Below are positions 53,396 through 56,300 of a stretch of DNA of 57,101 bases, in pieces. Location of the stretch: assembly GCF_003334255.1 (NCBI RefSeq), contig NZ_QOWU01000033.1, one strand, 5' to 3'. Made by a program: the position numbers. This stretch comes from Escherichia coli. GTDB taxonomy: Bacteria > Pseudomonadota > Gammaproteobacteria > Enterobacterales > Enterobacteriaceae. The stretch's first letter is position 1, and each line of letters begins with the position of its first letter.

Positions 53396-56300
53396 TCACA
53401 CTTTTTTGTCTTTAGCCAGCAAGAGCCGTTTACTGTTAATCTGTCAGGAAGTGTCCTCCCTAACAGTAGCAGAGATCTGCTTTTACATATTTATGCATTA
53501 ACTGCCACGATAGGTTGAATACCCATATTGGCTAAGTAATAAAGGCACATGATAATGCTCGTTCACTTTATTAATATGAAATTCAACGGGGATCTCAGGG
53601 AAGAAACTTTCAAGATTTTGTTTCTTGAAATAGTCCCCGGTTTTAAATACGACACGGTAATCGCCCGTAGTTGCAGTTTGCTCGGGCCACAGTGCCTTAA
53701 TTCGTCCATCCTTATCTGTTTTGGCGGTATTAAGTTGTAACCAGCCGTTGTCCGCTTTCTTTTCAAGAGTGACTGTCACGTCGGCAGCGGGTTTTCCTGT
53801 TTGCTGGTTCAAAATGTGCACACTAAGAATGTTTTGTTGTGCAGCATAGACCAAAGAAGGTAATGAAAATGCAGCCGTTACTACGGAGAGTACTAAATAA
53901 CGCTTTAACATGTTTATATCCTTGTCATGTGAATGAGTTTTGAGGATAGCGAAAAAGCGGCCACGGTAACCTTACAGCAGCATTACAATTTTGTAATGAA
54001 CCAGGCTGTTTCTATAACATATGATTTATGGCATATTATTTTCATGAAGATTTTACTTATTGAAGATAATCAAAGGACCCAGGAGTGGGTAACGCAGGGG
54101 CTTTCCGAAGCGGGTTATGTCATTGATGCCGTTTCTGATGGCAGAGATGGGCTTTATCTTGCGCTTAAGGATGATTATGCATTGATCATTCTGGATATTA
54201 TGCTTCCGGGTATGGATGGCTGGCAGATCTTACAAACGTTAAGAACAGCAAAGCAAACTCCTGTTATTTGCCTTACTGCAAGAGATTCTGTCGATGACAG
54301 AGTCAGAGGGCTGGACAGTGGGGCAAATGATTATCTGGTAAAACCTTTTTCATTTTCTGAGTTGCTGGCAAGGGTTCGGGCACAATTAAGGCAACATCAC
54401 GCTTTGAATTCAACATTAGAAATCAGTGGCTTAAGAATGGACTCTGTTAGTCAAAGTGTGAGCAGGGACAATATCAGTATTACACTGACGCGCAAGGAGT
54501 TTCAGTTACTTTGGCTACTGGCCTCCAGAGCTGGCGAGATTATCCCCAGAACGGTTATTGCGAGTGAAATTTGGGGAATCAACTTTGATAGTGATACCAA
54601 TACGGTGGACGTCGCCATTCGCAGGCTCCGCGCAAAAGTTGATGATCCTTTTCCTGAAAAGCTAATCGCCACAATCCGGGGGATGGGCTATTCATTCGTA
54701 GCGGTAAAAAAATAATGAAAAGATTATCTATAACCGTCCGTTTAACCTTGCTTTTTATATTGCTGCTGTCTGTTGCTGGCGCTGGAATTGTATGGACTCT
54801 CTATAATGGCCTGGCAAGTGAGTTGAAATGGCGCGATGATACAACACTCATTAACCGGACAGCGCAGATCAAGCAGTTGTTAATTGATGGGGTAAATCCA
54901 GATACGTTACCTGTGTACTTTAACCGGATGATGGATGTTAGTCAGGATATCTTGATCATTCATGGTGATAGCATCAACAAAATTGTTAACCGGACGAATG
55001 TCAGTGATGACATGTTAAATAACATACCTGCTACTGAGACAATCAGCGCAGCTGGCATTTACAGAAGCATTATTAATGATACAGAGATAGATGCTTTACG
55101 AATTAATATTGATGAAGTTTCGCCATCATTAACGGTTACTGTGGCTAAATTGGCTTCAGCCAGACATAACATGCTTGAACAGTATAAAATTAATAGCATT
55201 ATAATTTGCATTGTCGCCATTGTACTTTGCTCAGTATTAAGTCCGCTGTTAATCAGAACGGGATTACGAGAGATCAAAAAGTTGAGTGGTGTAACGGAAG
55301 CGCTGAATTATAACGATAGCCGGGAGCCTGTTGAGGTTAGCGCATTACCGAGAGAACTAAAACCTCTTGGGCAGGCGTTGAATAAAATGCATCATGCTTT
55401 AGTCAAAGATTTTGAGCGTCTAAGTCAGTTTGCTGACGATCTCGCTCATGAACTTAGAACGCCCATTAATGCATTACTGGGTCAGAATCAGGTTACGCTC
55501 AGTCAAACCAGAAGTATCGCTGAATATCAAAAAACAATTGCCGGTAACATTGAAGAGCTGGAAAATATTTCGCGGTTAACAGAGAACATACTGTTTCTTG
55601 CCCGGGCAGATAAAAACAATGTTTTGGTGAAACTGGACTCACTTTTTCTCAATAAGGAAGTCGAAAATTTGTTGGATTATCTTGAATACCTTTCAGACGA
55701 GAAAGAGATTTGCTTTAAGGTCGAGTGCAATCAGCAAATCTTTGCGGATAAAATTTTACTGCAACGAATGTTATCGAATCTTATTGTTAATGCCATTAGA
55801 TATTCACCAGAAAAATCGCGCATTCATATAACCAGTTTTCTTGATACCAACGGCTATCTTAATATTGATATCGCCAGTCCTGGAACGAAAATTAATGAGC
55901 CTGAAAAACTCTTCCGTAGATTTTGGCGGGGAGATAATTCGCGTCATTCCGAAGGTCAGGGACTTGGTCTTTCTTTAGTCAAAGCGATTGCCGAATTGCA
56001 TGGGGGAAGTGCTACGTATCACTATTTTAATAAGCATAATGTGTTCCGAATTACGTTACCGCAAAGAAATTAACATAGGGCTTCAGTACGCCATAAATCA
56101 ACCATGAAAAAACGCAGCCACGTCGTGAGTATTAACGTGGCTGCGATTGATTATGCGCTTACATTCATACGTAACAGGGATTAACCCGCATAAGCTGCCA
56201 GCATTTCCTGCGCCGCCAGTTTACCCAACGCATTCGCTGCGAAAGGACTGTCGCCGGTGAGAACTTTACGGTCCTTATGTACTCGCCCGGTGATGTCGTC

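Follow-up and report, generated by a model that had tools for sequence, protein, structure and literature searches.

The inverted repeat between hiuH and hprR

The DNA analysed here, the whole 57,101-nt stretch of contig NZ_QOWU01000033.1 (hereafter the window), is a segment of the Escherichia coli chromosome with 99.94% identity to strain 1532MA along its length. From left to right it comprises cobUST, several tRNA-Asn genes, the yersiniabactin island, zinT, msrQ, msrP and hiuH, followed by hprR, hprS and a truncated hchA. The genes msrQ, msrP and hiuH lie on the minus strand, and hprR-hprS is divergent and reads rightward; the divergence of hiuH and hprRS had been proposed in an earlier interpretation made from the DNA alone (the sequence-only reading), and the gene order is confirmed by annotation and profile matches. 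In this work we focus on an inverted repeat located in the spacer between these two transcription units. We identify it, with a probability of about 0.96, as the already published operator of the response regulators HprR and CusR, that is to say as a known element and not a new one.

The repeat, CATTACAATTTTGTAATG on the plus strand, has a single occurrence in the window, at 53981-53998. Its reverse complement, CATTACAAAATTGTAATG, is the reading on the hiuH strand, the central TT not being self-complementary. A repeat finder returns two 8-nt arms, 53981-53988 (CATTACAA) and 53991-53998 (TTGTAATG), which are 100% complementary and are separated by an asymmetric 2-nt spacer, TT, at 53989-53990. 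The sequence-only reading had described a perfect 18-bp palindrome at 53980-53997; what is found is an 8-2-8 inverted repeat with a non-symmetric TT centre, and its true position is shifted one base to the right. Within the repeat, the 6-4-6 inverted-repeat core ATTACA-ATTT-TGTAAT (53982-53997) fits the consensus ATKACA-N4-TGTMAT exactly.

The hiuH/hprR spacer extends over 132 bp (53912-54043). The box had been thought to be centred between hiuH and hprRS; it is indeed intergenic, but its centre (53989.5) is displaced by 12 bp from the midpoint in the direction of hprR, the distances from the box being 70 nt to the hiuH ATG and 45 nt to that of hprR. As the hiuH start codon occupies 53909-53911 on the minus strand (with the A at 53911), the box spans -87 to -70 with respect to it. 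The hprR ATG is placed at 54044 on the basis of the RefSeq annotation of near-identical strains and of an end-to-end match to the HprR model (1-223/223). A mechanical open reading frame that begins at 53933 and runs through the box was discarded as an artefact, since the start at 54044 is backed by both the annotation and the full-length model match.

Two papers print CATTACAAAATTGTAATG as the box of the hiuH-hprR spacer of E. coli K-12 (PMC9302797; bioRxiv 10.1101/2021.09.09.459708), and the literature places it between -87 and -70 relative to the hiuH ATG. The box is credited to Urano et al. 2015 and 2017, whom we cite second-hand through these two papers. Compared with this K-12 box, described as common to YedW/HprR and CusR, the window sequence is letter-for-letter identical and lies at the same position, with the same 18 nt, the same distance to the hiuH ATG and the same neighbouring genes. 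No difference is seen in the box itself; 21 nt outside it the strain has a single substitution (53960, G for T). This position falls in the presumed hiuH promoter spacer; T is found there in 1532MA and in each of the seven other E. coli strains examined, and the substitution is among 27 scattered ones that distinguish the window from 1532MA.

The sequence-only reading had assigned the repeat to the OmpR-family boxes of the CusR/HprR type. This assignment holds, as the repeat is identical to the published box and the adjoining regulator passes the NCBIfam HprR equivalog. The regulator also belongs to the heavy-metal response regulator subfamily (cztR/silR/copR; TIGR01387, 381.8 bits for a cut-off of 279.2), and all five proteins of the locus, HprR, HprS, HiuH, MsrP and MsrQ, exceed their curated NCBIfam cut-offs. 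HprR shares 52% identity with K-12 CusR, and their C-terminal DNA-binding stretches hardly differ (SDTNTVDVAIRRLRAKV in HprR, SDTNAIDVAVKRLRGKI in CusR), which fits a shared site. In the PDB there is no HprR-DNA or CusR-DNA complex, the closest entry being the isolated DNA-binding domain of PcoR. Regulator identity is established here, along with the sequence identity, position and conservation of the box.

Binding and induction are taken from published work. According to a review from the Ishihama group, genomic SELEX (systematic evolution of ligands by exponential enrichment) places HprR on the hprRS/hiuH spacer, with a recognition sequence shared with CusR. In O157:H7, HprR was located on the hiuH promoter by chromatin immunoprecipitation followed by quantitative PCR (ChIP-qPCR) and by electrophoretic mobility shift assay (EMSA). 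Furthermore, hiuH, msrP and msrQ form one operon, and reporter fusions have identified as its inducers hypochlorous acid (HOCl) and chlorite, HOCl acting via HprSR, as well as copper, acting via CusSR. Control of hiuH by peroxide and copper, as proposed from the DNA alone, agrees with this published induction and binding, except that the regulated unit is the hiuH-msrP-msrQ operon and not hiuH alone. Likewise, H2O2 was the signal first reported for HprS, but the physiological signal is now said to comprise HOCl together with further reactive chlorine species, chlorite among them, in addition to H2O2.

Through the box, periplasmic repair by MsrPQ and HiuH come under two kinds of signals, one (reactive chlorine or peroxide) relayed by HprSR and the other (copper or silver) by CusSR. 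A 2026 paper moreover connects HprR with colonisation by O157:H7. The box is functional and ordinary, and its recognition here is a correct annotation, not a discovery.

Conservation of the box in Escherichia and other Enterobacterales

The sequence-only reading had made its proposal depend on conservation of the repeat in orthologous spacers, and the box is kept both within E. coli and in other genera. The hiuH/hprR spacer was found in 5413 of 5426 complete E. coli genomes. The 30-nt segment formed by the box and 6 nt on either side is identical in 5259 of 5418 E. coli records, and a 133-nt query (the spacer and the first base of hprR) reaches at least 99% identity in only 2307 of 5417. The box is also unchanged in all eight E. 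coli strains sampled down the ranking.

Relatives were found by scanning a genome collection with HprR, and the divergent hiuH/hprRS synteny was confirmed by tblastn. This synteny is present in E. albertii, Pseudescherichia vulneris, Escherichia sp. ESNIH1, Enterobacter, Pantoea, Erwinia, Kosakonia, Phytobacter and Shimwellia. The box of E. albertii is identical to that of the window, and a dyad variant occupies the same place in eight further loci (seven other genera and Escherichia sp. ESNIH1). Every syntenic locus has its dyad box 45-50 nt upstream of hprR, and no other block of the spacer, which has otherwise diverged, is so well conserved. Outside E. coli the half-sites shift toward ATGACAA/TTGTCAT, as seen at cus. 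Divergence of hiuH from hprRS, with no msrP within ~1.9 kb, is the arrangement in Enterobacter, Pantoea, Erwinia, Kosakonia, Phytobacter and Shimwellia.

The gene order is hprR-hprS-msrP in the six Morganellaceae loci (Proteus, Providencia, Morganella and Moellerella), and all six contain a perfect ATGACAA-NN-TTGTCAT between hprS and msrP (~4535-4561 of loci L017-L022). Across Enterobacterales the box accompanies hprRS and stands before an adjoining periplasmic protection gene, which is hiuH, msrP or, in Escherichia, hiuH-msrPQ, with a third half-site on the target side in all cases. The displacement of the box to msrP in Morganellaceae and the shared third half-site described below are modest comparative additions.

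Two groups of loci were left out of these comparisons. Response-regulator loci from Firmicutes (42-52% identity) were mostly box-free, with matches at two mismatches in L030, L067 and L077 only, and those from Vibrio and Burkholderiaceae probably belong to other CopR/CusR-type systems.

Proposed promoter geometry and direction of action

When oriented toward the target gene, 17 sites (ten of hiuH, six of msrP and that of K-12 cusC; loci L008-L022 and L088) align without gaps in the order box, 3 nt, CTGTMAG, 21-22 nt and a -10-like hexamer. The hexamer is mostly TATAAC, and is TATCCT at E. coli hiuH and TAAAGT at cusC. The box and CTGTCAG have the highest information content. Three genera carry a central A (CTGACAG), hence the orientation of the third element is not strictly fixed. 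In the window this element reads CTGTAAG and starts 11 nt past the start of the promoter-proximal arm TTGTAAT, the two forming an in-phase direct repeat. Compared with the canonical OmpR/PhoB tandem repeats, the main element is inverted, and it is the proximal arm and the third half-site that form an 11-bp direct repeat. The arms and third element of Escherichia carry an A (TGTAAT, TGTAAG) where most other genera have a C (TGTCAT, TGTCAG), and this difference could set the relative affinities of the paralogues HprR and CusR.

The promoters were placed by means of the cross-genus alignment because a scan of 53800-54150 for consensus sigma-70 elements returned no promoter, a result that would be compatible with activator-dependent promoters. 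From the alignment we infer the promoter geometry and a role for the third half-site. If transcription of hiuH starts about 7 nt past the predicted -10 element, the centre of the box would be near -53.5 and the third half-site would cover approximately -41 to -35 of the hiuH promoter. We suggest tentatively, at somewhat less than even odds, that the HprR/CusR operator of Enterobacterales may be tripartite, consisting of the dyad and of an in-phase CTGTMAG that would orient the symmetric box toward hiuH, msrP or cusC.

Known operators offer several points of comparison. In the K-12 cusRS/cusCFBA spacer, the CusR box AAAATGACAAnnTTGTCATTTT (Yamamoto and Ishihama 2005, as given in PMC11195947) shares its 7-2-7 dyad and its regulators with the hiuH site. 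Toward its target operon, the K-12 cus site presents a third half-site, CTGTCAC, and a -10-like hexamer with a spacing identical to that of the hiuH site. Its half-sites are ATGACAA, whereas those at hiuH are ATTACAA, and it is the cus site that HprR reportedly binds more strongly. A third-half-site layout has already been published for AgrR of Cupriavidus metallidurans, and we found no description of one for HprR or CusR in the literature searched. The AgrR box, ATKACANNNNTGTMAT, has a 6-4-6 inverted-repeat core that the window site fits exactly, and replacing GT by CA in its promoter-proximal repeat lowered activation (PMC7380067). The AgrR system differs in organism, regulator and signal, which is silver, and AgrR is active unphosphorylated. 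To our knowledge, no mutational test of the third half-site exists for HprR or CusR. Finally, the CusR/CopR/CzcR palindrome ATTCATnnATGTAAT of the Pseudomonas paraeruginosa pcoA2-cusR spacer (PMC11195947) is also a single palindrome between divergent regulator and effector operons. Several paralogous response regulators share it with differing outcomes (PMC11195947); its half-site sequence and the genes it regulates differ from those of the window.

In the mechanism that we propose, the box is the operator shared by two OmpR-family response regulators that are paralogues, HprR, phosphorylated by HprS upon exposure to HOCl, chlorite or H2O2, and CusR, phosphorylated by CusS in response to copper or silver. 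A regulator dimer bound to the two symmetric half-sites (ATTACA-N4-TGTAAT core) activates the leftward hiuH-msrP-msrQ operon and, according to the literature, the rightward hprRS operon as well. A weak -10 element, TATCCT, combined with the third half-site, would make the hiuH promoter dependent on the activator.

The rightward branch is taken from the literature, in which HprR is stated to autoregulate hprRS; sequence comparison adds no independent support to it. Two published observations point the same way: hprR/S rise jointly with hiuH in cusS gain-of-function mutants, and one study swapped the hprRS promoter with the specific aim of removing the HOCl dependence of sensor synthesis.

Several points weigh against the explanation outlined above. 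HprR is reported to be weaker on the hprRS/hiuH spacer than on the cusRS/cusCFBA spacer. On the hprR side, the alignment contains no equivalent of the third half-site and no -10 element conserved beyond Escherichia, and the six Morganellaceae loci have no comparable box upstream of hprR. No transcription start was found in the literature searched, and the -53.5 geometry is one that we infer.

These features would in part suit a box that works in one direction only, activating hiuH-msrPQ, with hprRS either not autoregulated through it or even hindered by an overlap of the box with the hprR -35 region. The third half-site and the conserved -10 element are indeed confined to the target-gene side, no -10 element is conserved on the hprR side outside Escherichia, and in Morganellaceae the box stands before msrP only. 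Moreover, the distance of only 45 nt between the box and the hprR ATG means that the hprR promoter must overlap the box, and at the Pseudomonas homologue the outcome of a single palindrome on two divergent operons depends on the regulator. The stated autoregulation of hprRS, its joint rise with hiuH and the use made of its promoter replacement argue in the opposite direction. We regard one-directional action as unlikely, but it is the only alternative with some weight, and the comparative data point to hiuH or msrP as the target that is conserved.

Two further observations concern the hprR side. A block T-TGGCA-A at 54027-54036 (alignment columns ~139-148), 8-17 nt upstream of the hprR ATG, is kept in nine of ten genera and could be a ribosome-binding region or a promoter element. 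In E. coli SY033 (L005, 2587-2680), an element of the IS3 family is inserted directly past the box on the hprR side, so that hprRS is severed and the box stays with hiuH. This insertion is a natural test of the need of hprRS for the box.

The published HprR/CusR operator is also to be preferred to two readings in which the repeat is no protein site. The first, that it forms an RNA hairpin in a leader transcript and serves as an attenuator or stability element, is extremely improbable. Folding predicts a 7-bp stem and a 4-nt loop (-5.9 kcal/mol on the plus strand and -7.3 kcal/mol on the minus strand, z about -3), and the arm change from ATTACAA to ATGACAA is paired across genera with a change from TTGTAAT to TTGTCAT. 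However, the stem is short and AT-rich, lacks a trailing T-run and belongs to no Rfam family at threshold, and the box lies upstream of the conserved -10 element on the hiuH side. Arm complementarity is moreover lost in Pseudescherichia (6/8) and in Escherichia sp. ESNIH1 (5/8), where the half-site consensus still fits, as expected of a protein site and not of a hairpin. The RNA-element reading was rejected on the weakness of the hairpin, the lack of an Rfam match and these two orthologues with intact half-sites and no arm pairing, the published DNA binding accounting fully for the element.

The symmetry of the repeat alone proves nothing, because such inverted repeats are common in the window, which holds 12 perfect ones with arms of at least 8 nt and a spacer of 0-4 nt; 30 Markov simulations gave 5.3 on average (range 1-15). 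The significance of the box derives from its identity with the published site, its position and its conservation. A chance AT-rich palindrome devoid of function, which the frequency of 8-nt-arm inverted repeats (12 observed for about 5 expected) could lead one to suspect, has almost no probability left and is ruled out: the repeat matches the published box exactly, with a pattern that occurs once in the window and in 0 of 100 shuffles, and it is conserved, the box being near-invariant across ~5400 genomes and the dyad keeping its position in other genera despite diverged flanks. The 57-kb window contains no further HprR/CusR-type box with up to three mismatches to the strict pattern or up to two to the looser one, ATKACAANNTTGTMAT.

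Coordinates of the locus and other observations in the window

Table 1 Features of the hiuH/hprR locus, in window coordinates.
Feature	Coordinates	Strand	Basis and remarks
HprR/CusR box	53981-53998	none	CATTACAATTTTGTAATG on the plus strand, CATTACAAAATTGTAATG on the hiuH strand
Third half-site-like element CTGTAAG	53972-53978	-	Ungapped alignment of 17 sites; putative function by analogy with AgrR
Predicted -10 element of hiuH-msrPQ, TATCCT	53943-53948	-	Cross-genus alignment and spacing count
Weak candidate -10 element of hprR, TATAAC	54013-54018	+	16 nt after TTGTAA (53991-53996, within the box); speculative
hiuH (yedX), 5-hydroxyisourate hydrolase, first gene of the operon	53498-53911	-	NF011610, 296.9 bits for a cut-off of 217; annotation
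msrP, periplasmic methionine sulfoxide reductase, catalytic subunit	52385-53389	-	NF003767, 505 bits; annotation; co-transcription with hiuH from the literature
msrQ, haem-binding membrane subunit, last gene of the operon	51749-52384	-	NCBIfam cut-off passed; annotation
hprR (yedW), OmpR-family response regulator, 223 aa	54044-54715	+	NF008567 equivalog, 483.3 bits for a cut-off of 353, full length
hprS (yedV), sensor histidine kinase	54715-56073	+	TIGR01386, 316.9 bits for a cut-off of 292.55; annotation

To the right of hprS, the region 56181-57101 corresponds to hchA; near-identical reference strains have an hchA devoid of its N-terminus that directly adjoins an IS1 transposase at the window's right end. 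The window contains four tRNA-Asn genes, and the yersiniabactin-island integrase located beside one of them (47938-49090) is annotated as frameshifted in the closest reference. In the same island, a 1-nt insertion at 37724 relative to 1532MA splits irp2 (34124-40250, minus strand), the gene of HMWP2, into open reading frames at 34124-37672 and 37722-40250, which represents either a frameshifted pseudogene or a sequence error. Near the left end of the window, a 20-bp palindrome, TATCACTTATTTAAGTGATA (9-nt arms, 2-nt spacer), lies at 482-501 among remnants of IS66 and IS4.
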